Assembly (NCBI GenBank): GCA_963833985.1
Contig: CAWIAD010000001.1
Location: 928,001-992,000, forward strand
Reading direction: 5' to 3'
DNA: 64,000 bases
Source: an uncultured Planctomycetaceae bacterium
GTDB lineage: Bacteria; Planctomycetota; Planctomycetia; Isosphaerales; Isosphaeraceae
Part shown: piece by piece, positions 2,801 to 39,929 of the stretch
Layout of the letters: each line of letters starts with the position of its first letter
How positions within the stretch are numbered: position 1 is the stretch's first letter
Position numbers and translations under genes: made by a program
The notes under the pieces: generated by a model
The model's input: only the letters and a program-made list of their open reading frames with translations
What the model was told of the DNA's origin: nothing
Database searches by the model: none

Positions 2801-3268
2801 GGCGGGCACTCCTCTTGCAAGGGTCGAAAAGTCGGCATTCATCCGAGACCAACGCACTGGCTACGGATCAGGACCTCCTGATGAGGCAAGATGGGAATCG
2901 GAGCCATGGAAACAGGGACACGACCAGTGCGGCGCGATGACGCTTGTTGCACTGCAAGACCGGGTGAGGCCGGTAGACGCCGGTCATCTTAGCGATGGAT
3001 CCTCCGCGAACACAAAAGAAAACCGGTTGCGGGCAGCCGGCATTTTGCACCCACCTCGAGGCACTGGCAGCCCGCGCCGGCTTGACCCTGCCGCATGGGC
3101 GGATCTAAGATGTTACAAGCAAGGACGCCTGGTTGCGCCTGAGGCCGGAGGAGCGACGCGGCGAGACGTCGCAGCCCACACTCACAAAGCCCCTGCACGT
3201 CGGCGCAACGCACCGGGGTCTTCATCACCGTCTTGATTTGTTCTTTCGATAAGCGGAGTCACGCCATC

Positions 3269-4378
3269 ATGTTGCGATGGGTCATCCTGGCTGTGATCGT
3301 GGTCGTGCTGGCCGCGATGGGGACCCTGGTGGTTCAGTACGGGACGGGATCGAGCCCGAGCTGGAGCCTGCCAGCCGGCGGCGACAAGCAAGGCCCGCAG
3401 CCGCGCGCGGAGGTAGAAGGACCACTGACCCACGAGTTCGGCCAGCTCTCCACACAGAAGACTTCCACCAAGCGCTGGAAGGTGAAGAACACTGGCCAGG
3501 GCGACCTCGAGATCTGGCTGCTGGGTTCCACCTGTACCTGCACCATCCCGAAGCTCAAAGGGGAAGGGACGCGAGAGGTGGTCAAGCCCGGCGACTCGAC
3601 CGAGATCGAGCTGGAATGGAAGACCAAGGACATCATCGGCGAGTTCGCCAAGGGGGCGACCATCGGCACCAATGACCCAAGCCGGCCGGAATTCATGCTC
3701 CGGGTCCACGGCATGGTGCACGCGCCGATCGTGGTGCTGCCCGAGCCCCAGGAAGGCGTGGTGGCCGTTGGCGACGTGGAGACCGACCTTGGCCGGGAGA
3801 TGTCCCTGGCGGTTTTCTCACCGGAGCACCCCGAGATGAAGATCATCAAGGCCGTCACCTCCAAACCCGACCTGATCGTGCCGCACCCCACCCCATTCTC
3901 GAAGGAAGAGCTTGAAAAGCTGAAGGTGAAGGGCGGCTACCGACTGAGGCTGGAGTTCAAGCCGGGCCTGCCGGTGGGCAGCTTCCGCGAGGAGCTGGTG
4001 ATCGATAGCAACCACCCCGACCTGCCCCGCAAGACTCTGGTCCTGGCCGGCATGGCGTCCGGCCCGATCAGTGTGATGCCCTCGGTGCTGCGGATGGTGG
4101 CAATCAACGGCAAGCAGGGAGGCTCCGGACAGGTGACCCTCTTGGTGCGCGGAGGCCGGCCCACCAGCTTCACGGTGCTCCGCAAGCCCGAGAAGCTCGA
4201 TGTCGTCTCGGTCACCTCCAACGAATCGGCGAGCGCGAAGGGCCGCTACCGCCTGACTGTCACGGTCGCGCCCGGCACGCCTGCCGGCCTGATCGAGGAT
4301 GAGATCATTCTCAAGACCGATCATCCCCAGGTGAGCGAGCTGAAGGTCCCCGTGAGCATCGTCGTCGGCGCGAGTTGA
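3269..4378 (+). CDS. DUF1573 domain protein (membrane-anchored, Ig-like repeats)
   Basis: N-terminal TM helix; VKNTGQGDLEI...STCTCT...VKPGDSTEIELEW pattern; repeated xTNDP/SNHP/TDHP motifs. Confidence 0.75.
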   Translation: MLRWVILAVIVVVLAAMGTLVVQYGTGSSPSWSLPAGGDKQGPQPRAEVEGPLTHEFGQLSTQKTSTKRWKVKNTGQGDLEIWLLGSTCTCTIPKLKGEGTREVVKPGDSTEIELEWKTKDIIGEFAKGATIGTNDPSRPEFMLRVHGMVHAPIVVLPEPQEGVVAVGDVETDLGREMSLAVFSPEHPEMKIIKAVTSKPDLIVPHPTPFSKEELEKLKVKGGYRLRLEFKPGLPVGSFREELVIDSNHPDLPRKTLVLAGMASGPISVMPSVLRMVAINGKQGGSGQVTLLVRGGRPTSFTVLRKPEKLDVVSVTSNESASAKGRYRLTVTVAPGTPAGLIEDEIILKTDHPQVSELKVPVSIVVGAS

Positions 4379-4469
4379 TTGCTGCCCCCGGTCGACTTCC
4401 AGGCCACGTTCGCGAGCCGGCTGATTCCGGGGTTCGCTCGCTACTCACGCCATGGTCGGCAAAGGTCGC

Positions 4470-5929
4470 TTATTCCCTCACGATCAGGCCCAGTGCGTAC
4501 ACCTCCTTCCCGGCGCGTCCCTGGAGGCCCAGCGGGATCTTGCCGTCGCTGGAGACATTGCGCGGGCTTCCTCCCTTCTCGTCGCCCAGCCACGGCGACT
4601 GGTAAGAATCGGTTGAATCGAGCTTGTCTCCGTCGATCCGCATGAACACCATCTCGAAGCCGTCGACGGTCAGACCGGTGTGCGTGTTGATTGCCCCGAT
4701 GGCGTAGCCTGGCTTCGCCACAGCGGTGGTCTCCGCGCCAGCTTCGTGCCGCGCCGCTCGCCATCGACGAGCCTCTCTCCCTGGCGGTATATCGGCTGGA
4801 TCGAGCTGATCTTGGGGCCGCCGAATCGCGTGATGTAACTGACCCACGCCCCGACGAGAACAGCCCCGGCCGAGCCGATGTCGTGGAACCGATCGCGGTC
4901 ATTCCCGGGGAAGCTGGCGGGCAGTGCAGTCAATCCCTCCGGCAGCGCGCTGGCAGTCGATCCGGCGGCGGCCCCGGCCGTGCTCGAGCCGGTACGGGGT
5001 ACCGTCCGGCTCCTGTTCCTCGTCGCTCCCCTGGCGCCGCGAGCGATTGCCCCGGCGGCGGCTCCCGCCCGCGCGGCTGCCGCCTTTTGCCGGGCCATGC
5101 CGCGGGACGCCGGTGTTGTCGGCGCCGTCGAGTCCTTCATCCCCAGGCGATCCTCGAGCAACTTCTTCACCTCCGGCATTCGATCGTTTCGCACCGACTC
5201 GAACGCCGGGTCGCGAGCGCTCAGCTCCATGACGGCTAGCTTGGAAATGGTCGAGTCTCCCGAGGGTACGCTGAGCCGATAGACGATGAGCGCGGCCTCC
5301 TTCCCGGCCATCACATGCCCAAGCGGCTCGATGCGCTTCGCCGCGGGGTTCAGGAGCATGAGATTCGCGGAGCCGCCCTTCTTCATGGGGCCGGCAAACT
5401 CCTCCGGGATGACCATCTTCCAGGTCTTGCCACTCTTCCGCAACGTGCTCACGTTCAGCCGCACGATATCGGTTTCTCCCAGCTTCATGCGCGATCGGTA
5501 GACCACGTGCGCGGTGTCGTCCCCCTGGGAAATATGGCCGTAGACGTCTATCCGGGTGTTCGCGACCGCGGCCTTCGTGCCGGGGTCGGAAAGCTGCCTG
5601 CGCAGAATGCCGGTGAAGAGCCGCCGTCCATCGAGAGCTTTCAGGTCCTTCACGGTTTTCACGCCCGGAAACGATTGCAGAACCCTGGCCTCGCCAGCTT
5701 TCTGGACAGCCTCGTCGAGCGAGCCGACCACTGCCGCACGGAGCTCTTCGAGCGAGTCTGGATCCATCGCGGCGACGAACTCATCGATGCGGCCATGGTT
5801 CACGGCGTCCAAAGCCTTGCTCACAACAGCCTGGGGCGAGCCCGCCTTGGGCGACGCGGACCAGGCCGAGCTCGAGACAAGCAGCACCAGAAGCGCACCA
5901 CCAGCAACCGAGAAGATCTCTCGCTTCAT
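4470..5929 (-). CDS. Secreted hypothetical protein with a C-terminal beta-rich (possibly jacalin-like) domain; frameshift near 4738
   Basis: Signal peptide; ORF 4670..5929 continues into the 4470..4847 frame (GTKL-G-AETTAVAKPGYAIGAI...GKEVYALGLIV) if one G is restored. Confidence 0.6.
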
Positions 5930-8895: not shown

Positions 8896-9812
8896 CGCGT
8901 CTTCTCCAGGTCGATGTCCAGGAGTTTGACCATCGTGCGGACCACGTCGTAGTCCTGATCTTTGACCGCGGCGAATCCCTCGGCCTTGAGCGGTTTCAGG
9001 ACGGCGGGGTCCTTGAGCGTGAGGAAGGCGGTCCTGATCTCGGCTTGCAGGCCCGCATCAAGATCGTCGCGGAGGACCCAGGGATAGTTCGGGCAGGGGT
9101 CGGACTCGGCGAGAATCCTGATCTTGTCGCGGTGGATCGTGCCTTGCTCGAGGAGTGACTCCAGGATGGGCCGACTGAGACCGCCGGCCTGAGCGTTGCC
9201 GTTCTGGACGTTGACGGCGACCGCGTCGTGGGCTCCCACGAAGACCTCCTTGTAATCTTGCCCCGCTTTGAGCTTGCCGAGGGTCAGGAGCATCGTCTTG
9301 GGGATGAGGTGGCTGGACGTGGATGCCGGATCTCCAAAAGCCACTGTCTTCCCCTTGAGATCCTCGATGCGTTCGACGCTCTGGCCGGCCCCGGCGATGA
9401 GCACGGCCCGGTAGGTGGGTGACCCTCCCTCAACCTTGGCCGCGAACGGAATGGCTGCGGGCATTCGCTGCTTGAGCAGCACATAAGAAAGGGGGCCGAA
9501 GTAGCCAACGTCGATCTGCCCGTGACGCATGGCTTCGATCATCGACGAGTAGTCCGTGGTGACCACCAGCTCGATCGGCCGTTTCAGGGCCGATTCCAGG
9601 TATCCACGCAACGGCTCATTCTTCCTGATGATGCTCGCGGGCGACTCGTCCGGCAGCAGGGCGAACCTGAGAGGGACCGTGGAATCCGTGCCGGCCCCCG
9701 GTGCCGCACCGCCGCGCCCGGCGGCCGGGTCGGGGCCTCCGCCGCAGCCGGCAAGAACACAGATGGCCCAGCCCAGCAAGAGCCCACGAACTGGCAAAGT
9801 CACTGGAATCAT
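8892..9812 (-). CDS. phnD: Phosphite/phosphonate ABC substrate-binding lipoprotein (PtxB-like member of the PhnD family)
   Basis: Lipobox LAGC; ALLPDE, TTDYSSMIEAMR, YFGPLSYV, ASTSSHLIPK, HDAVAVNV, PNYPW, which closely resemble PtxB as I recall it. Confidence 0.9.
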   Translation of the reverse strand: MIPVTLPVRGLLLGWAICVLAGCGGGPDPAAGRGGAAPGAGTDSTVPLRFALLPDESPASIIRKNEPLRGYLESALKRPIELVVTTDYSSMIEAMRHGQIDVGYFGPLSYVLLKQRMPAAIPFAAKVEGGSPTYRAVLIAGAGQSVERIEDLKGKTVAFGDPASTSSHLIPKTMLLTLGKLKAGQDYKEVFVGAHDAVAVNVQNGNAQAGGLSRPILESLLEQGTIHRDKIRILAESDPCPNYPWVLRDDLDAGLQAEIRTAFLTLKDPAVLKPLKAEGFAAVKDQDYDVVRTMVKLLDIDLEKTR

Positions 9813-10648
9813 GATGAGAGCTCGCTGTGAATGGATTCGCCGATGGGGTTCGTGCTTGCCTGCTGTAGCGCCGAATCGATTGAGTCATCCATCTCGAGGT
9901 TGGCTTGCGGACTTCCGCCCGCCGTACCGTAGAGGCGTTCGATCTCCTCGGGGCCAAGCGCGCCGGGAGAGAGATTGAAGACCAGTATCCCCCGTTTCAA
10001 TCCCAGGACGCGGTCGGCGATGGCCGTGGCCAGTGGAACGTTGTGCAGGTTGCAGAGCAGGGTCGTGCCACGCTCGCGGCAGATCGACTGCAAGAGCGCG
10101 AGGATCTCGCGTCCCGTCACCGGGTCGAGGTTCGAGATCGGTTCGTCCGCCAGCAACACCTCGGGGTCATGGGCCAGGGCCCGGGCGATACCGACGCGCT
10201 GCTTCTGACCGCCGGAGAGCTCGTCGACCCGGGCGTGCCGCTTCTCGCCAAGCCCAACCGAGATGATCGCTTCGGTGGCCAGTTGATGATCCTGCTTCGA
10301 GAAGAGCAAATTCCAGGGCGCCTTCTCCGCCAGCCGCCCGATCAGCACGTTCCGCAGTACCGAGGCGCTTCCCACGAGCTGGTACGATTGAAAGATGAAG
10401 CCGACTCGCCGCCGGACCGCGGCCAGGTGCTTCCGCTCGACGCTCATGCCGTCGATGCGGATTGTTCCGGAGGTGGGCCGGAGCAGGCCGTTGATGCACC
10501 GCAGCAGGGTGGACTTGCCGGCGCCGCTGGGGCCCAGGACGCAGGCGATTTCGCCCCGGGCTAGCTCAAAGCTCACGCCTTGAAGAACCCGATCGCCACC
10601 GAAGTCCTTGGTCAGGTGGGCGATGCTGATCATCGGTGGTTTCGGCAT
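9809..10648 (-). CDS. phnC: Phosphonate/phosphite ABC transporter ATP-binding protein (PhnC/PtxA)
   Basis: GPSGAGKST; LSGGQKQRVGIARAL; LADEPISNLDP; CNLH; ATGA overlap with phnD. Confidence 0.92.
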   Translation of the reverse strand: MPKPPMISIAHLTKDFGGDRVLQGVSFELARGEIACVLGPSGAGKSTLLRCINGLLRPTSGTIRIDGMSVERKHLAAVRRRVGFIFQSYQLVGSASVLRNVLIGRLAEKAPWNLLFSKQDHQLATEAIISVGLGEKRHARVDELSGGQKQRVGIARALAHDPEVLLADEPISNLDPVTGREILALLQSICRERGTTLLCNLHNVPLATAIADRVLGLKRGILVFNLSPGALGPEEIERLYGTAGGSPQANLEMDDSIDSALQQASTNPIGESIHSELSS

Positions 10649-10806
10649 GGTCGTGGCGGAGGGTTGCGGCGGATCCCGGCTTCAAGTCTATCAGATTGCC
10701 GCACACCGACGCGATGCAACGCAGCGAGGATCACTCGCCCGGTAGCTGGTACAATGAGCCAAAAGAGGCTCACCCTGACCATTTTCGACTGGAGAAACTC
10801 TTCGCG

Positions 10807-11786
10807 ATGAAAGCCATCGTGATCACGGGAGTCGGCGGCCCCGAAGTGCTCGCGCTGCACGAGGTTCCCACTCCTGAGCCCGCGGGCGACCAGGTCCGCG
10901 TACGGGTGCGCGCGTGCGGGTTGAACCGGGCCGACCTGTTGCAGGCAAAGGGACACTACCCTGCGCCCGCGGGCGTTCCGCAAGACATCCCGGGGCTCGA
11001 GTACGCCGGCGAGGTTGACGCGCTGGGACCGGGCGTCACCGGGCCGCTTCGCGTGGGAGACCGGGTCTTCGGCATCGTGGCCGGGGCGCCCAGGCCGAGT
11101 ACCTCGTGACGCACGAGCGGATGGCGGTGCCCATTCCAGAAGCGCTCGACTTCGAGTTGGCGGCCGCGGTGCCCGAGGCGTTCATTACCGCGCACGACGC
11201 CTTGCTCACGCTGGGGCGACTTGGGCCGGGTGAGAGGGTGCTGATCCAGGCAGTCGGCAGCGGTGTGGGAACCGCCGCGTCACAGATTGCCCACGCCATG
11301 GGCTGCACGGTCTTCGGCACGTCGCGAACCGACTCGAAGCTGGCACTCGCGAGGTCGCTGGGCGTGGACGTCGGCATCAACAGTGCAAAGCATGATTTCG
11401 CCGAGGTAGTGCGGCAGCAGACCGGTCATGGCGTTCAGGTGGTTCTCGACCTCGTGGGCGCCGAGGCCTTTGAGGGGAACCTCAAGGCGCTTGCCCCCCG
11501 GGGAAGGCTGGTCGTGGTCGGCCTCCTGAGCGGCCGCAAGGTGTCGCTCGACCTGGGGATGCTTTTGAGCCAGCGGGTCACCATGATTGGCACGACCCTG
11601 CGGGCACGACCGCTCGAGGAGAAGATCATGGCCACGACCCTGTTCGCCAGGCAGGTGGTGCCCTGGCTGGAGCGCGGGATGGTCCGCCCGGTCGTCGATG
11701 CGGTGATCCCCTGGGAAAACACGAACGAGGCATTCGGCCGGATGCAGTCGAACCAGACCTTCGGCAAGGTCATTCTCCAGCTCTGA
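10807..11786 (+). CDS. NAD(P)H:quinone oxidoreductase (PIG3/zeta-crystallin, MDR family); frameshift near 11085
   Basis: GGPEVL, GLNRADLLQAKGHYP, PGLEYAGEV; restoring one G in the G run gives VAGGAQAEYLVTHE, continuing to AAAVPEAFITA...GKVIL. Confidence 0.88.
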
Positions 11787-12549
11787 CACCCAGGCCCGGA
11801 CCGGGCGCTTCGCCGCCATGATAGGCCGCCGGTCCGGCGGCACCGGCACCGTTGGGTGACGCCCCGCTGCCCGCGAGTGCTCCGTCTTCAAGAGCCACCT
11901 GTCCGTCCTGGATCTCCAGCACCAGGTCCTCGGGCGTGATGAAGCGACGGTCGTGAGTGACGATCACCAGGGTGGTCTGATAGGTCTGCTGCAAGCCGCG
12001 GAGGATCTTGTAGATCTCGTCACCGGTCTTCGAATCGAGTTCGCCGGTCGGTTCGTCGGCGAGCACGAGGAGCGGTTGCTTGATCAGGGCCCGGGCAATG
12101 GCCACGCGCTGCTGCTCGCCGCCGGAAAGCTGGTAGGGCCGGTGTTCCAGCCGGTCGCCCAGCCCCACGTGGGTGAGCAGCTCGGTGGCGCGCGCACGCT
12201 GTTCGGCCGTGACGCCGCGCGGCAAGAACGGCACCAGCACGTTTTCCAGGGCCGAGAGGTTGCTGATCAGGTTGAAGGACTGGAAGATGAAGCCGACCTG
12301 CTCACGGCGATAGACGTTCTGCATGGTCTCGGACATGGCGACGAGGCTCTGGCCGTTCACCCGGATCTCGCCGCGGGATGGCCGGTCGAGCGCCCCCAGC
12401 AGGTAAAGCAGGGTGCTCTTTCCCGACCCGCTTGGCCCCACGATGAAGGCGAACCGGCCGCGGTCGATGTGACAGTTGATTCCCCGTAGCGCCTCCACCT
12501 GACGGGTGCCGCTCCGGTAGGACTTCCAGACATTCACCACTTCAATCAT
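11770..12549 (-). CDS. ABC transporter ATP-binding protein (LolD/MacB-type)
   Basis: [43 protein letters not shown]. Confidence 0.92.
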
Positions 12550-12558
12550 CGGGTGGCC

Positions 12559-13779
12559 TCAATGTGATCCGAGCCGGATAGCGTCCATGGGAACCAGCCG
12601 CGCGGCCCGCCAGGCGGGGTAGAGCCCGCCCAGCGTGCCCATGACCACGCTCAGGCCGATTCCCAGGCCCAGGAGCGGAGGATCAACCCCCAGGTGCACG
12701 CCTCCGCTGATAAACTGGTTCGCAATCGACGTACCCAGCAGCGCCAGCATGCAGCCGACGACCCCGGCCATGAGCCCGAGGAAGGCGCTCTCCAGGGTGA
12801 CCAGGGTCAGGATGTTGGCCTCCGACCAGCCGTTGGTCCGGAGCACGCCGAACTCGACGAACCGCTCGGTGGTGCTCATGAGCATGGTGTTGATGATGCC
12901 GATGATCCCGACGAGCAGCGCCAGGCTGACGGTCATCATGAGCAGCTTGTCCACCTGCCCCATGAGCGAGCCGAAGTTCGCCTTGACCTCGTTCATGCTG
13001 CGGGCGTCGACCCCCGGATAGGTCTTCTCGATGGCCGCGGAGAGGACGTCGTACTGGCGCGGGTTCCTGGCCTCGACGTAGATGCTGGAGATCGAGTCCC
13101 TGGCGAAGTTCAGGGCCTTCCGCGCCGTTTCGATATCCATGACGATCACCACGTCCAGCAGCAGCGATCCGGTCTCATAGAGACCGATGATCGTGTAGTC
13201 CTGGTCCACGATCCGCAGCGTGTCGCCCAGCACCCGCGGCTCCCCGTTCGCCTTGGGAAAATCGCGGGCGATCTTGCGGCTGATGACGATGTTTGGCTTT
13301 CCGACGTCCTCCATGGTCAGGAAGCGGCCCTCGCCCTTCTCCTTGAGCGCCCGCAGAAAGACGGCGCTGTTGAGGTTCATGTGCGAGGCAACGTCCTGGC
13401 CGCAAACCACGAGCTGGTCGAAGATCGACGCCGCGATTCCCTTTCCGGAGGTCAGGCCACGGGCGAACATCCCCCGGCCCTCGATGCTGGGAGCGACTTG
13501 CCAGACCTCAGGCGCTGCGGCCCGCACCTCCGGCAGCTTGCGGAGGTCATCGGCCAGGCTGGCGGGGAGGGTGCTGAAGACCGGGCTGGGGACATTCTCG
13601 CGGATGACCATCACGCCCTCGATCTGGCTGAGCGTGTCGCCCACCAGGTCGCGCAACCCGTTGGAGACGCTGAAAAGGCCCATCACGCCGAGGATCGGCA
13701 CCGACAGCCCGATCAACGCCAGGGCAGTGCGGAGCGGCCGGGTCAAAAGGTTACGCCAGGCAAAAGAACCCACGGGCAA
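12559..13779 (-). CDS. ABC transporter permease (FtsX/MacB-like)
   Basis: AWRNL..RPLRT; GIINTMLMSTTERFVEFGVLRTNGW; GGLYPAWRAARLVPMDAIR. Confidence 0.9.
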   Translation of the reverse strand: MPVGSFAWRNLLTRPLRTALALIGLSVPILGVMGLFSVSNGLRDLVGDTLSQIEGVMVIRENVPSPVFSTLPASLADDLRKLPEVRAAAPEVWQVAPSIEGRGMFARGLTSGKGIAASIFDQLVVCGQDVASHMNLNSAVFLRALKEKGEGRFLTMEDVGKPNIVISRKIARDFPKANGEPRVLGDTLRIVDQDYTIIGLYETGSLLLDVVIVMDIETARKALNFARDSISSIYVEARNPRQYDVLSAAIEKTYPGVDARSMNEVKANFGSLMGQVDKLLMMTVSLALLVGIIGIINTMLMSTTERFVEFGVLRTNGWSEANILTLVTLESAFLGLMAGVVGCMLALLGTSIANQFISGGVHLGVDPPLLGLGIGLSVVMGTLGGLYPAWRAARLVPMDAIRLGSH

Positions 13780-26839: not shown

Positions 26840-27166
26840 TGATCGTGCTCGAAAGAGTGTCGGAAGCCCGGGATGGGGCTCTCGGGCCCTGGTCAGAATC
26901 CCGACAACCTTCCCGTCTTCCACTTCCCCTTCACGGTCTGGTCGCAGTTGTGTATGAAACGTAGGCAATCCGAGGCCCCGGGAGGTCGAGGCTTCGGCCT
27001 TGATCTCCCTGCGGGTCCGGACTGTTTGCGACTCCTGCGTGATTGAATAGAATGAAGGCGTGCAGCCGCGCTTCAGCGAAACAAACCGGGGCCCGGCCTG
27101 GCGCACGGCGTGACGCCCGCATTCCACGAACGTTCATCCAGATCGTGTCCCAAGGTAGCTCACTCG

Positions 27167-28064
27167 ATGCCCGACCCACTGGTGACATCACGGCCCTTGC
27201 CGGTCTCTGATCAGGACGCGCATTCCGCGCCCGTGCCGCCAGTCGTCCCTCCCATGTTGAGCGAGCGGCAACGCCGCGAATGGCTCATCGAAACGCTCGG
27301 GGAAGCCTTCTGCCGCAAGCTTGGCGTCTATCGGATTCCCCAGGACCTCGTCCTCTCGGTGGTGATTCCGGCGTACAACGAAAATCGAACGATCCGCGAG
27401 ATCCTCGACCGCGTCCGCGCGGTGCCAATCAACAAGCAGATCATCGTGGTCGACGACTGCTCGACCGACGGCACGCGTGAGATCCTGCGGCAGGAAGCCG
27501 AGCGCGACCCCGGCATGATGCTGGTCCTGCACGAGGTGAACCAGGGGAAAGGCGCGTGCGCTGCGGACCGGCTTCCGGCACGCCACCGGCGACCTGGTGA
27601 TCGTCCAGGACGCTGACCTGGAATACGAGCCCGAACAGTATCCCGAACTTCTTCAGCCGATCGTCGAGGGGAAGGCCGACGTGGTCTTCGGCTCGCGGTT
27701 CATCGGCGAGACCCATCGCGTGCTCTATTTCTGGCATTCGGTGGCGAACAAGGGCTTGACATTGCTCTCGAACATGTTTACTAACTTGAACCTCACCGAC
27801 ATGGAGGTCTGCTACAAGGTCTTCCGCCGCGAGATCATCCAGGGCATCACGCTCAGGAGCGATCGCTTTGGCTTCGAGCCGGAGGTCACCGCGAAGGTCG
27901 CCCGCTACACGCTGACCGACGAGCACGGCCGGCGCCGGCTTTGCCGGATTTACGAGATCCCGGTCTCGTACCACGGGCGTACCTATCTCGAAGGCAAGAA
28001 GATCGGGATCAAGGACGGCTTCCAGGCGCTCTACTGCATCATCCGCTACGCCTTCACGGACTGA
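27167..28064 (+). CDS. GT2 glycosyltransferase (DPM synthase-like); frameshift near 27557
   Basis: [20 protein letters not shown]; removing one T gives [35 protein letters not shown]. Confidence 0.9.
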
Positions 28065-31387: not shown

Positions 31388-32252
31388 CTAGGCCACGCCA
31401 TGGTCCTTGAACCAGGCGAGCATCCGCTTCCAGCCGTCGGCCGCGGCTTCCTTGCGGTAGCTGGGACGATAGTCGGCGAAGAAGGCGTGCGGCGTGTCCG
31501 GGTAAACGATGATCTCGGCCGTCTTGCCAGCCTCCTTGAGCGCAGCACGCATCTTCTCGACCGACTCGACTGGAATCCCCTGGTCCGCCGCTCCATAAAG
31601 CCCCAGGATCGGTGCATGGAGCGAGCCGACCAGGTCAATGGGGTTCTTCGGGTGCAGCTCATCTGGCTCCGAGACCAGCCGGCCGTACCACGCCACGCCC
31701 GCTTTCACTCCGGGATTATGAGCCGAGTAGAGCCAGACGATCCGCCCGCCCCAGCAGAAGCCGGTGATGCCTAGCTTTTCCGTGTTCCCCTTGCTCTGGT
31801 TCTTGGCCCAGGCCACCGTCGCGTCCAGGTCGGACATGACCTGGCGGTCCGGAACCTTGGAGACCACCTTGGAGATGATCTCGCGGATATTCTCGATCCT
31901 GGAGACGTCTCCCTGCCGCGCATACGAGCTCGGTGGCAATCGCCAGGTAACCCAGCTTCGCGAAACGGCGACAGATGTCCTTGATGTGCTCGTGCACTCC
32001 GAAGATCTCCTGCACGACGAGCACGGTGGGGAACGGCCCCCCCGTAGCGGGCATGGCGCGGTAGGCGGGAACCTGTCCGTCCGCGACGGGGATCTTCACC
32101 TCGCCAGCCTCCAGTCCGGCCGTATCCGTGGCGATGGTCTGGGCCGAGACGGGGACTGTGGCCGCGGCAAACCCGGTCGCCAGCGATGTGACCACGAAGC
32201 CCCGTCGCGAGAGCTCGCCAGCAGCAAGCACGCTCTGTCGATCGTCATTCAT
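31388..32252 (-). CDS. Dienelactone hydrolase family protein with a Tat signal; frameshift near 31926
   Basis: [29 protein letters not shown] nucleophile; [11 protein letters not shown]. Confidence 0.9.
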
Positions 32253-35231: not shown

Positions 35232-35721
35232 GAGCCCCTACGCGTCCTCGAGGACGAAGCAGACCGGATATCTCGGTTCCAGTTGGTGCTGTGCATGCGG
35301 ATTCGTCTGGGAAGACAGGGGCCACGAGCAGGGCCAGGTGACCCGGCCAGGGCTTCTCGCAGGAGTCGCGAGTAATCCCTTGCAATGGCAGCGATGTCTG
35401 CTTAGTCTCGGATAGCATCCAGTACTGGTGTCGCTGTTCGGCTCGGTCCCTGGGTGTGATCGGGGACGGTAGAGGCCAGTTGGCTGTTGCGGTCTGGCTC
35501 CCGAGGGCAATTCGCTGATGACGACAGAACGAGTTCTGCGCAGCACGGCAATGAAATGCTCTGCATCCCCATTTCACGGTTTTTCTGGTCATGGTTCGAG
35601 TGCGCAGCGGATTGAGTGCCGGACGCCGGAGCAGTGGGGTGCCGGTTGGACTTCAGAGTTCGCACCGGTCCACGAACGAATTCATTACGGCCCGCAAGTG
35701 ACCACTTCCGGAGGCACGACA

Positions 35722-35970
35722 GTGGCCATCGACAAGGAAAAACTGAACCAGATTCGGCGCGAGGCAGAGAAGATCAAGGAGGCAGGATCGGCCGTGGCCC
35801 AGAACATGTTGACGCTCTGGGCCGCGCAGCTCGATATAGCCCTTGCCATTGAGGACGAAGAAACGATCAAGCGAATCATCTCGCAGCCGACACTGAGTCC
35901 TGCTTTCTATGACAACCACGGCTGCGACTGCCGTCCACTCCCAAACGGAGCGGGTTCGCAGTGTTGGTGA
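35722..35970 (+). CDS. Putative RiPP precursor peptide (82 aa)
   Basis: GGAGG at 35710-35714 then GTG; charged helical leader; core PAFYDNHGCDCRPLPNGAGSQCW; directly upstream of a radical SAM/SPASM gene. Confidence 0.7.
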   Translation: MAIDKEKLNQIRREAEKIKEAGSAVAQNMLTLWAAQLDIALAIEDEETIKRIISQPTLSPAFYDNHGCDCRPLPNGAGSQCW

Positions 35971-36221
35971 GAAGGCTTGCCCGCTGAATGCCCTTTTTCG
36001 ATGTTTGACATCCCTCACCCGTTGTGTCAACTCTTCGGGGCGCAGCGGGATGCGGAACGAACCAAGGATTCCTCCAGCGGCCAGCATCTCCACTCACATC
36101 AAGTCGACCATTCACCTGGCCCGAGGATGCGCGCTCCCACATTCTCCACGGTGGGCCTTCTCGCTTTCGGTACTGGGACCCGATTCGATCTCTCAGGAAT
36201 GAGTCGTCGGAGGATCGCGTC

Positions 36222-37580
36222 ATGGGCTCGCAAGAAGGTTGGGTGCTTTCGCGCTTTAACTTGTGGACGAGCGCGACGGATGGAGGGCTGTTGATCTACA
36301 ACAGTCTTACCGGTGCTCTGCTGCAATTACGGAATGCCGAGGCTGAGATTGTCGCCGATTTGAAGGAACACAATGGCCTTGTCGTCGAGCCAAGCGGTGT
36401 TCTCGCTGTCTTGATAACGCAGGGAATTCTTGTCCCAAGCACGTGCGACGAACTTCGCCGCGCCAGGTTGCTGCACGAATCGCGCTTCCACCAGCGCGAT
36501 CAGCTCCACCTGATCCTCATGCCAACGGAGCAGTGCAATTTCCGTTGCGTGTACTGTTATGAAGACTTCAAGCTAGGCCGTATGTCACCGGGAGTCATTG
36601 ATTCGATTGTCAATCTCGTGCGAAGGAGAGCCGTCGATCTTCGTTGCTTTTCGGTGAGTTGGTTTGGCGGCGAACCGCTCATTGCCGCCGACATTGTCGA
36701 GAGCTTGTCAAACCGCCTGATCGCGATTTGCTCCGAGGCAGGCGTCGAATACTCGGCGAGCATGACCACGAACGGGTACCTGTTGAATCCTGAGCGGGCA
36801 GAGATGTGTCGCTCCGCGCGGATCTCCAAGTTCCAGATCACGCTCGACGGCGTTCCGGAATCGCACAACCGGCAGAGGCTGCTTGCAGGCGGCGGAGACA
36901 CTTTTGACACCATCCTTTCCAACCTTCGCCTGCTCCGTGATCGCACTGATGAATTTCGCGTCAGAGTCCGAGTCAACTTCGCTCCGAATGGGATACGGCA
37001 TATGCCCACGTTCTTGAGCTCGCTTGCCGACGACTTCGGTGGGGACCCCCGTTTCCACGTCTTTTTTCGGCCGGTTGGTCGATGGGGGGGTGAACATGAC
37101 CACAATCTTTCGATCTGCGACCGATCATCGGGCGAGAACCACGAGATCGAGTTTACCGAGCTTGCAGCGAACGCCGGCTTCCCTCTGGAAGCCCTGCGCG
37201 AGGCGATGAAGCCGTTCGGCAGCACCTGCTATGCCGCCAACCCGAATTCTTTCGTCATCGGATCAGATGGGAGCGTCTACAAGTGCACGGTCGCTTTCCG
37301 GGACCCTCGCAACCGCATCGGTCAGATTGCGCTCGATGGATCGCTCAATATTGACGAGAGCCTTCATTCTCTCTGGATCTCGTCGGGTGAAGAGGTCGAT
37401 CAGGGCTGCCAGCAATGCGCTTTCAGGCCTGCCTGTCAAGGCAACCACTGTCCCCTGAACAGGCTCATCAGCAACGGTGAGAAGACCTGCCCCAGCATCA
37501 AGACACACATTGACGCTTACCTTCCTGTCGTGGCCTCCGCCACCCTCCGGTCCCTTCCTATCGTCAGCGTGGGTGGCTAG
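36222..37580 (+). CDS. Radical SAM/SPASM peptide maturase with a putative N-terminal RRE
   Basis: GGAGGA RBS; CNFRCVYC; WFGGEP; TTNGYLL; QITLDG; SPASM C-x17-C...CxxCx5Cx4Cx12C; N-terminal SRFN...LLIYNSLTGALLQL resembles a PqqD/RRE. Confidence 0.92.
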   Translation: MGSQEGWVLSRFNLWTSATDGGLLIYNSLTGALLQLRNAEAEIVADLKEHNGLVVEPSGVLAVLITQGILVPSTCDELRRARLLHESRFHQRDQLHLILMPTEQCNFRCVYCYEDFKLGRMSPGVIDSIVNLVRRRAVDLRCFSVSWFGGEPLIAADIVESLSNRLIAICSEAGVEYSASMTTNGYLLNPERAEMCRSARISKFQITLDGVPESHNRQRLLAGGGDTFDTILSNLRLLRDRTDEFRVRVRVNFAPNGIRHMPTFLSSLADDFGGDPRFHVFFRPVGRWGGEHDHNLSICDRSSGENHEIEFTELAANAGFPLEALREAMKPFGSTCYAANPNSFVIGSDGSVYKCTVAFRDPRNRIGQIALDGSLNIDESLHSLWISSGEEVDQGCQQCAFRPACQGNHCPLNRLISNGEKTCPSIKTHIDAYLPVVASATLRSLPIVSVGG

Positions 37581-37863: not shown

Positions 37864-39929
37864 ATGCTCGCAAGACGGCTCGCAGAGGCCCTGGGAGACG
37901 TGGCGGAAGCGGCCGGGATCCGGGACGACGGAACGGAGGTGGCATACGAGTCGGAGCAACTGTTGAGCGAACCGCTCGCCTGGTTTCTCTGCCATCCGAA
38001 CTGGCCATCGGGCTTGGCATCCGAAAATGTCCCCATCGAACTATCGATATCCATGGGAGGCGACGGTACGCCCTGGCTCAGGTATTCGGTCGACTGTGCT
38101 GATCATCGCATGGGCCTCGGCGGCAACTGGCCGCGGTACCTGCGTGAAGCCACTCGTCTTGCGTCTGGGGTTGGTGTCCCACCTTCCGTTGTATGGCAGC
38201 TTCTGGCAAGTGTCCTGGACGGTTCGCCGCCGCTCGATCGATCGCGGCTCTACCATGGAGTCGGGTACGCCGGAGGTGGCGCGAAGAGAGTCTCACTTTA
38301 CTTCAGTACGGCGTGGCTCACATATCCCAACTTCAGAGAGCGATTTCCAGACCTCGTCGAACCTGTAGGTCAGGCAATTGACCGCTGGGGTAGTCCCAGG
38401 CCCCTTTGTTTCGATGGCCTCGCCTATGACCTCACGGGTCAAGAGCCGGCTCATCGAACCAAGTTGTACCAGTGGCTTGGTTGTGATGTGCCTTCGCCTC
38501 TGAATGAACTTGCCGGACGACATCCCGACCTGGTGGCTGCTGGTGTTCTATTCAACCATTATTTCTCATCGAACCCGCCTCATACCCTCAGCAGATCCCT
38601 CCTGCTGCAATGGAGTCTCCTGCCGCCCCGTATGTCCTGCAACCAAAAACTCTTCTTTGAATGCACTCGATGGGGCTGGGGCAATCCGCGGGCATACCGC
38701 GAACTACTTTCGTTACTGAACAACCGCTTCGGAATGAATCTCGGACCTCTCTACGCGATGATCGCGGTCTTCGCGAATTATAAGATCTTGATCAGACCAA
38801 CTTTCCTCGCCATCGGCCCTGGACCAGCCCATCCCTCAATCACTTTCTACTTCCGTCCCGTTCTTGCAGAACCGCTTCGGTCGGCTTCGACGTCGATGGT
38901 CATGGGTCCCATGCCAGACTCTTTCGCCAGGAATCCCGTCGGGTTGCTCGAACACATGACAAGGACCGCCACTGATTTCTTGCTCAGGGAGAAAAGAAGC
39001 GATGACTACTGGATGGATTTCGCACTACCTATTGGCCCATCGGATGCGTGGGTGACTGCATACATAACTGCCATCCTGTCCAGGATGAGCGGCCTGCACG
39101 TCGAACTCGATCGACCCGCCCGGATTCTGAGAACCTGGTTTCGACCCAATCTCGGTTGGGGTGAAAACGGCAACGCTCCCACTGACGCGGACTCGACGGC
39201 ACTCGCCCTGCTGACATTGAAACGGCTGGACCGGCCAATTCCCGATGGGGCTAGTGACATTCTCATGCGATACCGTCTGCACAAAGGAGGTTATTGTCAT
39301 GATTTAAATTCGGATGTGGACGATGAGCACGGGACTGGCGCGCCCGAAATCACCGGCATCGCTCTGCTCGCCATGCTTGAAATCGGCCTGGCAGACTCGG
39401 CTGTCATCAATGGCTGTGTCGAAAATGTGCTCGCTTTACAGCACCGGAGGGCGGGTGGAACGCATTCTGGTGGAAGGATGACCTCTTCGCAACTTGCCGG
39501 ATCTTGCATGCGCTGAATGCCTATTTGCGGTCCCACCAAGCACGAAGTGCGTGGCTTGAAACGCCGGAATACTCTCTTCTGCAATCCGCGAGCCGCGCAG
39601 TGGAAACGGCTCGCCTCGCTTGTATCTCCGCACAGGCCGTGTCTGATGAACCGCTGAGTCTCGGTCTCTGGCTCAGCAGTTGGGTGGCCGCCGGCGGGAG
39701 CCCTCATTACCACAGCATCGGTCGAATGCTCAGTCGTTTGAACTCAGAACAGCAAACCGACGGACGTTGGCTTGCGTCACCAAGTCGGCGAATCGCGGGA
39801 ACTATGCTCAACCGTCCCTGGGCAAGGTCGGACTCAGGCCGATTGTATCTCGATACGCGCTGTCTTGTGACGACAGCGACAGTGCTGGACGGCCTGTGGT
39901 CGCTTCTTCTGGCCCTGAAAGAGGCATGA
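37864..39929 (+). CDS. Fusion of a DMATS/ABBA-like aromatic prenyltransferase and a class II terpene cyclase-like (QW-repeat) domain, ~688 aa; frameshift near 39444
   Basis: N-half: PIELSIS...LRYSVD, YHGV...VSLYF, LAYDL...RTKLY. C-half: FLLREKRSDDYW, SDAWVTAY, GWGENGNAPTDADSTALAL, LQH(P)EGGWNAFWW after restoring one C, EQQTDGRW. Confidence 0.7.

Follow-up and report, generated by a model that had tools for sequence, protein, structure and literature searches.

A candidate RiPP cassette pairing a TIGR04463-like radical SAM enzyme with a prenyltransferase-terpene cyclase in a planctomycete genome

Known systems closest to the locus

CrpC of Methanococcus voltae installs ranthionine thioethers on CrpA; a ranthisynthase whose SPASM domain has seven Cys, it was reported in 2026 as the first TIGR04463-group enzyme to be tested (PMC13692751). 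The first reports of peptides with cyclised terpenes date from 2024 (cited in PMC13290415). One RiPP maturase, NctPC, combines an ABBA prenyltransferase with a class II terpene cyclase: it attaches a geranylgeranyl chain to Trp and cyclises that chain afterwards (PMC13290415). NxxcB forms an Asn-beta thioether on the N-x-x-C motif of NxxcA and also accepts Asp (PMC9389541), and PalQ prenylates a C-terminal Trp, with ComQ and PalQ both being trans-IDS-like enzymes (PMC13290415).

We analysed a 64,000-nucleotide stretch of an uncultured Planctomycetaceae genome (hereafter the window), in which a short precursor gene is the first of three genes on the same strand:

35710..35714, plus strand: ribosome-binding site GGAGG, 7 bases 5' of the GTG start
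35722..35970, plus strand: precursor peptide gene, 82 amino acids (family, coding pattern, start of the orthologue)
35815..35841, plus strand: leader motif L32-W-x-A-Q-L-D-x-A40 (A40 invariant, W33 and L37 at least 90% conserved in 25 aligned precursors)
35905..35931, plus strand: core F62-Y-D-N-H-G-C-D-C70 (aromatic, invariant Asp64, N-x-x-C, two Cys)
35962..35967, plus strand: C-terminal Cys81-Trp82 (Trp82 is the sole Trp of this core; not a family constant)
36222..37580, plus strand: radical SAM/SPASM enzyme, 452 amino acids (PF04055 at E 1e-18; TIGR04463 at 222 bits; CteB the best PDB match; Cys pattern)
37864..38883, plus strand: DMATS/ABBA-type aromatic prenyltransferase domain, residues 1-340 of the third gene (profile matches, conserved residues)
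38884..39929, plus strand: class II terpene cyclase domain, MstE-like, with D-A-D-S-T (matches of the L001 orthologue; DNA alignment)

The locus resembles the CrpA/CrpC pair in its best-scoring family model, in the architecture of its enzyme (N-terminal extra domain, radical SAM core, seven-Cys SPASM) and in having a Cys-containing substrate encoded next door. Unlike CrpA, which is a 29-kDa repeat protein, the substrate here is an 82-residue peptide with three Cys, two of them conserved; a conserved Asn/Asp precedes the Cys, the partner is a prenyltransferase-cyclase, and the enzyme scores 222 bits against a cut-off of 525. The third gene shares with NctPC the domain order of an ABBA prenyltransferase and an MstE-like cyclase, alongside a core Trp, a likeness drawn from the description of NctPC in PMC13290415 and not from its sequence. 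In contrast to the NctPC system as described there, the precursor lacks a Pfam or NCBIfam leader family, the partner is a thioether-type radical SAM enzyme, and both fused and cyclase-free versions occur in the family.

Resemblance to the remaining systems is more piecemeal. N65-H-G-C68 follows the NxxcA pattern, and N-x-x-C or D-x-x-C occurs in all 29 precursors of the family, but the long helical leader, second Cys, prenyl enzyme and non-streptococcal hosts set the system apart from NxxcB/NxxcA, and no NxxcB-type model appears among the best 25 of the 73 NCBIfam matches of the radical SAM enzyme. The aromatic-X-X triads F-Y-D and Y-D-N recall the triceptides made by XncB, YhhB and HtkB (PMC11499958), although cyclophane-synthase models match the enzyme poorly and the Cys pair is invariant. 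The C-terminal Trp likewise recalls PalX, but the enzyme here is DMATS/ABBA-like with a cyclase, unlike ComQ and PalQ. By analogy, the system may work like a CrpC-type ranthisynthase system combined with an NctPC-type maturase. The precursor family is apparently undescribed: the literature searched, whose scope excluded the 2024 report on cyclic-terpene peptides and most articles behind subscription, listed no account of it, although the supplement of that report may do so.

The precursor gene and its family

Translation of positions 35722-35970 (+) yields 82 amino acids with the C-terminus PTLSPAFYDNHGCDCRPLPNGAGSQCW (core FYDNHGCDC-RPLPNGAGS-QCW), on which the residue numbers of the first-pass annotation (F62, Y63, D64, N65, C68, C70, C81 and W82) are correct. 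That annotation had also placed the start at a GTG behind GGAGG, making the gene shorter than the 150-amino-acid ORF that begins at 35518, and the comparison with the closest orthologue, at locus L001, bears this out. We rejected the 150-amino-acid start because the 5' extension is not shared with L001 (identity at 3 of 60 residues across the 60 upstream codons) and lacks the coding pattern of GC by codon position (0.56/0.63/0.54, versus 0.59/0.43/0.70 in the short ORF). The L001 precursor likewise has a GTG start behind GGAG, and GGAG(G) lies 5' of the precursor start in the nine loci inspected besides the window. Differences from L001 in the first 55 codons number 16, 9 and 24 at codon positions 1, 2 and 3, as expected of a protein-coding gene. 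The 82-amino-acid ORF is confirmed as a real gene; promoter and terminator scans of the locus gave results at chance level.

The leader, which the first pass had drawn at residues ~1-54 as rich in Glu, Lys, Ala and Ile, has that composition (Ala 9, Ile 8, Glu 7, Lys 5 and Leu 5 being the commonest residues of 1-54), and composition together with hydrophobic moment suggests that it is helical. Two negative claims made at the same time also stand: no Gly-Gly occurs anywhere in the 82 residues, so a double-glycine site is absent, and the leader fits no Pfam or NCBIfam family, the scan of the precursor matching 0 families and no family, including the Nif11, NHLP and double-glycine leaders, being matched by more than 1 of 25 members.

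A phmmer search of 1.84 billion representatives with the precursor gave 16 matches at E<=0.001, of which 15 are true family members; one match, P0007, was a spurious repeat protein and was dropped. Further members came from a profile search (four), from a second copy in the same genome and, in the case of L003, from a radical SAM scan, while a leader DNA pattern run on metagenomes hit 63 loci, 8 belonging to the family and 55 not. After removal of P0007 and of the near-copies L115 (of L075) and L128 (of L108), the set comprised 29 precursors, our own and 28 relatives. The leader DNA pattern matched three viral contig positions, none of them family members; a word-index search with the single precursor peptide returned itself as the sole match, and an ESM Atlas search with the peptide returned no usable match.

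Across the family the best-kept leader motif is W33-x-A/S-x-L37-D-x-A40, and the L32-A40 segment is a probable enzyme-recognition sequence. In the core, all 29 precursors have an Asp at most five residues before the first Cys, two close Cys (as C-x-C in 25) and an Asn or Asp immediately before a Cys, and 28 of 29 have Tyr or Trp at most two residues before the Asp. The [ND]xxC motif is found in 29/29 precursors (NxxC in 25/29) against a shuffle mean of 15.5 and maximum of 24, and aromatic-x-[D/N] in 27/29 against a shuffle mean of 10.7, where the shuffles exclude only effects of composition and the 29 precursors, being related, are not independent observations.

Other features vary widely. FYD is present in 9 of the 29 and (F/W/Y)DN in 11; a terminal Trp ends 11 and a Cys-Trp pair only 4; nine cores have no Trp at all; four precursors stop within four residues of the second Cys; and C-x-C...G-x-G occurs in seven. 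The terminal Trp is missing even in L001, the closest orthologue, which has the same fused prenyltransferase-cyclase. On these counts we rejected FYDN and Cys-Trp as family constants, so that of the conservation anticipated at first pass, for (F/W/Y)DN or the Cys residues, the Cys pair holds in 29/29 whereas FYD, (F/W/Y)DN and the third Cys do not.

The modifying enzymes and their linkage to the precursor

The start of the radical SAM enzyme was set at the ATG at 36222 by alignment with L001; the listed ORF begins at 36024. CxxxCxxC at residues 105-112 (C105, C109 and C112) and SPASM Cys 336, 355, 396, 399, 405, 410 and 423 are present in 9 of 9 family enzymes, and there is an extra conserved Cys299. 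The N-terminal domain of about 90 amino acids (93) has no Pfam match and aligns with the N-terminus of 8VPO; it is a candidate fused RRE. The best NCBIfam model is TIGR04463, which the enzyme matches at 221.7 bits (its paralogue at 220.9 and the L075 enzyme at 208.2), below the cut-off of 525, followed by Clo7bot (178), CefB (158) and geopeptide (135 bits), again below their cut-offs; among the best 25 of 73 matches it lies under every NCBIfam cut-off. Comparison of active-site-proximal residues by alignment, following the method of PMC10288494, gave Y-F-T-T-T-V, similar to the F-F-T-S-H-Q of CteB at positions 1-4 and differing at 5-6, and disagreeing with StsB (Y-T-I-S-K-L) and anSME (F-Q-Q-S-D-F). 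A tree, made in a quick version that left out 10 short or duplicate rows, placed seven of eight precursor-linked radical SAM enzymes on one branch (SH-aLRT 94), with the L075 enzyme outside.

Within the family, a long-leader subgroup (L062, L003, L080, L108 and L116) has Ser or Ala in place of Tyr right after CxxxCxxC of the radical SAM enzyme, and its cores read aromatic-D-[N/D]-C-x-C; the pocket of the enzyme may have changed in concert with the spacing of the core. Sister radical SAM enzymes adjoin another apparent precursor family (L025:7045-7477, L026:5607-5798, L037:6992-7237, L042:1341-1601 and L053:6971-7551), whose cores all carry repeated N-x-x-C units behind leaders that mostly resemble D-x-x-G-R-x-x-I-x-D-P. 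Among 25 peptides picked by eye beside sister enzymes, which makes the count weak evidence, 18 have [ND]xxC and 4 have aromatic-x-[D/N].

The third gene matches DMATS enzymes and class II cyclases only, with no match of the trans-IDS-like type. A profile of five prenyltransferase members found the solved structures 4YL7 and 6ZRX-6ZS0 at E about 1e-3, PF11991 and TIGR03429 matched the domain weakly and below cut-off, and its Atlas neighbours lie in clusters where Trp_DMAT and PTase_Orf2 proteins make up 14% and 41% of the members. E59, R73, R126, Y146, Y202 and Y329 are invariant in 5/5 prenyltransferases, and the domain keeps the P-x-E-x-S Glu together with Arg, Lys and Tyr residues that bind indole and diphosphate in DMATS enzymes. 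The substrates of its closest solved relatives are presumably small molecules. The first pass had proposed prenylation by analogy to ComX; we rejected a ComQ-type step because the neighbouring enzyme is of the wrong type for it, a DMATS/ABBA prenyltransferase fused to a class II cyclase.

In the assembly this gene is broken, which the first pass had not noted, nor had it noted the cyclase. The ORFs at 37864-39516 and 39504-39929 are two halves of one gene, which DNA alignment with L001 shows to be separated by a one-base deletion near 39442, outside any homopolymer run, that puts the cyclase half out of frame. The intact L001 orthologue (L001:7422-9482) is a single protein of 686 amino acids whose C-terminal half matches the class II cyclases 6IJ1 (E 3e-12), 8PAJ and MstE (E 2e-6). 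Read with X at the break, the gene product is 69% identical to L001 over 688 columns, and its cyclase domain keeps D-A-D-S-T, presumably the protonating motif of a class II cyclase. Because the window holds at least two more genes with the same kind of split, the frameshift is probably an assembly error. An AlphaFold single-sequence model of the fused enzyme had a pLDDT of 38, too low for use, and a plasmid search for the enzyme gave no match.

Elsewhere in the window, a family-2 glycosyltransferase (27110-28064, +) and a dienelactone hydrolase (31388-32252, -) each appear as two overlapping ORFs matching consecutive parts of a Pfam model; these splits are likely assembly indels, which calls for caution with other split genes in this genome. 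Four further prenyltransferase-cyclase fusions (P0026-P0028, and P0029 from Nonomuraea sp. NPDC052265) show 37-45% identity in the N-terminal domain, and P0027 and P0028 have D-A-E-S-T instead of D-A-D-S-T.

The expected tie between precursor and radical SAM enzyme was found, as adjacent genes, in 10 of the 12 loci with DNA. At L076 the contig stops 126 bases past the precursor, and at L082 neither the 1.6 kb downstream nor the roughly 0.5 kb upstream contains a radical SAM gene. An ABBA prenyltransferase follows the radical SAM gene in 6/12 loci, or 6 of the 8 having DNA beyond that gene: it is fused to a cyclase in this window and in L001, cyclase-free in the second copy of our genome (L062), L003 and L080, and cut by the contig end in L116. 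Each of these six loci has at least one precursor with a core Trp, which is terminal here, in the second copy, in L080 and in one L116 copy, and internal in L001 and L003. No ABBA prenyltransferase was seen near the L075 and L115 precursors, in 6.2 and 4.9 kb; these two are the only loci without an aromatic before the Asp, and they keep the Asp, the Cys and the radical SAM enzyme. Fifty-one other loci of the same radical SAM group had neither precursor nor prenyltransferase (0/51). The two separate modification sites proposed at first pass are likely.

Several loci differ in arrangement. L075:2060-3753 and L115:2355-4049 have the reversed order (radical SAM, precursor), three Cys and the active-site profile Y-F-S-C-S-L, and L115 also carries an unrelated prenyltransferase/cyclase-barrel ORF 1 kb from the precursor. 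L116:1798-2586 (-) holds tandem precursors, one ending in Tyr-Trp and one without Trp, that share one radical SAM enzyme and one prenyltransferase; with their different tails they form a natural test of the prenyl acceptor. The second cassette of our genome (L062, C2:1243451-1260707) consists of a long-leader precursor ending FYDNCDCGGTVGTQCW, a radical SAM enzyme and a stand-alone ABBA prenyltransferase, followed further downstream by a second SPASM enzyme, whose best matches at about 224 bits are nif11/PapB/SCIFF-like, by a B12-dependent radical SAM enzyme and by a UDP-sugar-dehydrogenase-like protein. By eye, deacetylase-like and acyltransferase-like genes are also present, with a PhyH dioxygenase and a class III aminotransferase upstream, and the product of that cassette could be far more decorated.

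The precursor family is rare. Among 61 relatives, the precursor had a match at a meaningful E-value in its own genome alone, with 19 others weak at E 0.013 or above, and the prenyltransferase profile was likewise found in 1/61, the same genome. That genome was also the only one of 401 in the phylum with the precursor; the class of L003 yielded its seed genome only among 401, and the class of L004 yielded 0/401. In the 10.2-Mb genome, the sole two precursor matches and the sole two prenyltransferase matches make up the two cassettes. The GC content of the cassette is 57.9%, that of the remaining window 65.1%; none of the 60 relatives searched has the cassette, and in L001 it is flanked by different genes. 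It therefore looks horizontally acquired. The L001 flanks are a Tc-toxin-like gene (PF18276) and a large Gly/Thr-rich repeat protein (3250-5412 and 9716-13303).

Proposed pathway and alternative readings

From its family and linkage, the gene product is almost certainly the precursor of a peptide that is made by the ribosome and modified after translation, and linkage and leader-core anatomy together mark the peptide as the likely substrate of the radical SAM enzyme. We propose a pathway of thioether formation followed by geranylgeranyl-type prenylation and cyclisation, to which, from sequence comparison, we give a probability of roughly 0.6 as a whole. The helical leader would dock via W-x-A-x-L-D-x-A on the N-terminal domain of the radical SAM enzyme, which would then abstract a side-chain hydrogen and join a Cys thiol in its place, probably giving one or two non-alpha thioether (ranthionine) rings at Cys68 and Cys70. 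The ABBA domain would next prenylate a core aromatic ring, and the class II cyclase would protonate and cyclise the chain in the manner of NctPC, steps that are probable provided the gene is intact in the cell; because a cyclase domain follows, the prenyl chain is probably long. The ORF lists of the window, L001, L003 and the second copy, inspected by eye and partly Pfam-scanned, show no dedicated protease or exporter around the cassette, so the leader would be removed by a housekeeping protease or else retained. The product, a thioether-ringed peptide with a polycyclic terpene, would most plausibly serve as a signal or defence compound that seeks membranes. A ring-first order is suggested by MppC, a peptide ABBA-like enzyme that can need both the leader and a prior ring (PMC12715784).

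Where the first pass had left cyclophane and thioether side by side, the evidence favours the thioether, given the invariant Cys pair, the kinship with TIGR04463 and CrpC including the seven-Cys SPASM, and the CteB-like active-site positions 1-4. Two points speak against it: at positions 5-6 (T-V) the enzyme differs from both CteB and CrpC, and the open iron site on which thioether formation is believed to depend could be occupied by Cys299. The conservation pattern points to upstream Asn65 or Asp64 as the acceptor, in an N-x-x-C ring, a placement to which we give a little less than an even chance. The four precursors ending within four residues of the second Cys leave little downstream room, which argues for it; the motif pattern alone does not fix the ring, because aromatic-x-[D/N] is also well conserved (27/29), as would be required in a triceptide, and [ND]-Cys (29/29) is as constant as [ND]xxC.

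The direction of the ring is where the nearest tested enzyme disagrees. In CrpA the Cys consistently precedes its acceptor, opposite to N-x-x-C, and CrpC, the only tested TIGR04463 member found, links Cys to a later residue and tolerates different acceptors (PMC13692751). Thioethers formed the CrpC/PapB way would join Cys68 to Arg71, Cys70 to Leu73 or a Cys to a tail Gly, leaving Asp64 and Asn65 for recognition or for the prenyltransferase, and a StsA-like C-x-C...G-x-G hairpin can be drawn in this precursor. We consider this rather unlikely: the downstream positions are unconserved, with that motif in 7/29 and 4/29 precursors ending too soon after the second Cys, whereas the upstream Asn/Asp are the conserved positions. 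The StsA-type hairpin was rejected as a family rule on the same count and on an active-site profile unlike that of StsB.

For the proposed prenylation, Trp82 is the first candidate because it is the sole Trp in this core, and we put its chance at about even; Tyr63, at clearly lower odds, is named second because Tyr or Trp before the Asp is far better conserved. The earlier choice of Trp82 therefore remains the likeliest here but does not extend to the family, where a terminal Trp is found in 11/29 and is missing in L001. That the lineage lacking the aromatic (L075 and L115) also lacks an ABBA prenyltransferase argues for a prenyl role of the aromatic; the prenyltransferase assignment itself comes from weak matches (E about 1e-3) together with motif conservation.

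The terpene step could also be dead, through a real frameshift that truncates the cyclase, or the fused enzyme could act on a small aromatic molecule, so that the peptide receives radical SAM rings only. A deletion that is not in a homopolymer run and intergenic gaps longer than those of L001 (251 and 283 versus 48 and 68 bases) would fit decay, and the closest solved relatives of the N-terminal domain act on small molecules. This is unlikely, since the like splits in at least two other window genes suggest assembly indels, both halves are well conserved with catalytic motifs kept, and the prenyltransferase is found only beside this precursor family in the loci and genomes examined.

Less likely still, the radical SAM enzyme makes a three-residue cyclophane on F62-Y-D64 or Y63-D-N65, with the Cys pair serving as a disulfide or metal ligand. 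The frequency of aromatic-x-[D/N] fits the triceptide aromatic-X-X motif (PMC11499958), and the Ser or Ala that replaces Tyr after CxxxCxxC in the long-leader subgroup could make room for a ring. Yet the models of cyclophane synthases reach 52-54 bits where their cut-offs lie at 425-445 (YhhB 54.2 versus 445, AmcB 51.6 versus 425; DynA reaches 64.5 versus 450), far under the TIGR04463 score; L075 and L115 keep the enzyme though the aromatic is lost; the triad appears in just 4/25 of the hand-picked sister precursors; and the aromatic is explained equally well as a prenyl acceptor. It is very improbable that the gene encodes a small, unprocessed helical protein that binds metal through Cys-x-Cys and only accompanies the enzymes: a conserved helical region does make up two thirds of the chain and no protease or exporter is seen beside it, but the leader-core anatomy with its very variable tail, the tandem L116 copies with different tails and the peptide-modifying enzyme class next door speak against it.

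Returning to the thioether-terpene pathway, a bolder version, which we hold to be doubtful, is that of a hybrid class in which a TIGR04463-like enzyme closes thioether rings backwards onto Asn/Asp and a DMATS-derived enzyme adds a linear or polycyclic terpene to a mobile Trp or Tyr. Several members would then carry two interlocked [N/D]-x-x-C rings, the terpene would be polycyclic where the cyclase is fused, and, as neither a protease nor an exporter is seen, the product may even persist as a whole, lipid-anchored, cross-linked mini-protein.

If the proposed pathway is true, this three-gene cassette would join TIGR04463-type radical SAM chemistry and cyclised-terpene chemistry on an 82-residue substrate with two conserved Cys, giving a chemically unusual product that is testable by co-expression. 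It would offer an easy system for asking at which residue radical SAM enzymes of this kind form their link, how an enzyme of DMATS type acquired a peptide substrate and whether that enzyme follows a Trp to any position, with natural pairs that have or lack the cyclase, and have or lack the terminal Trp, as built-in controls.
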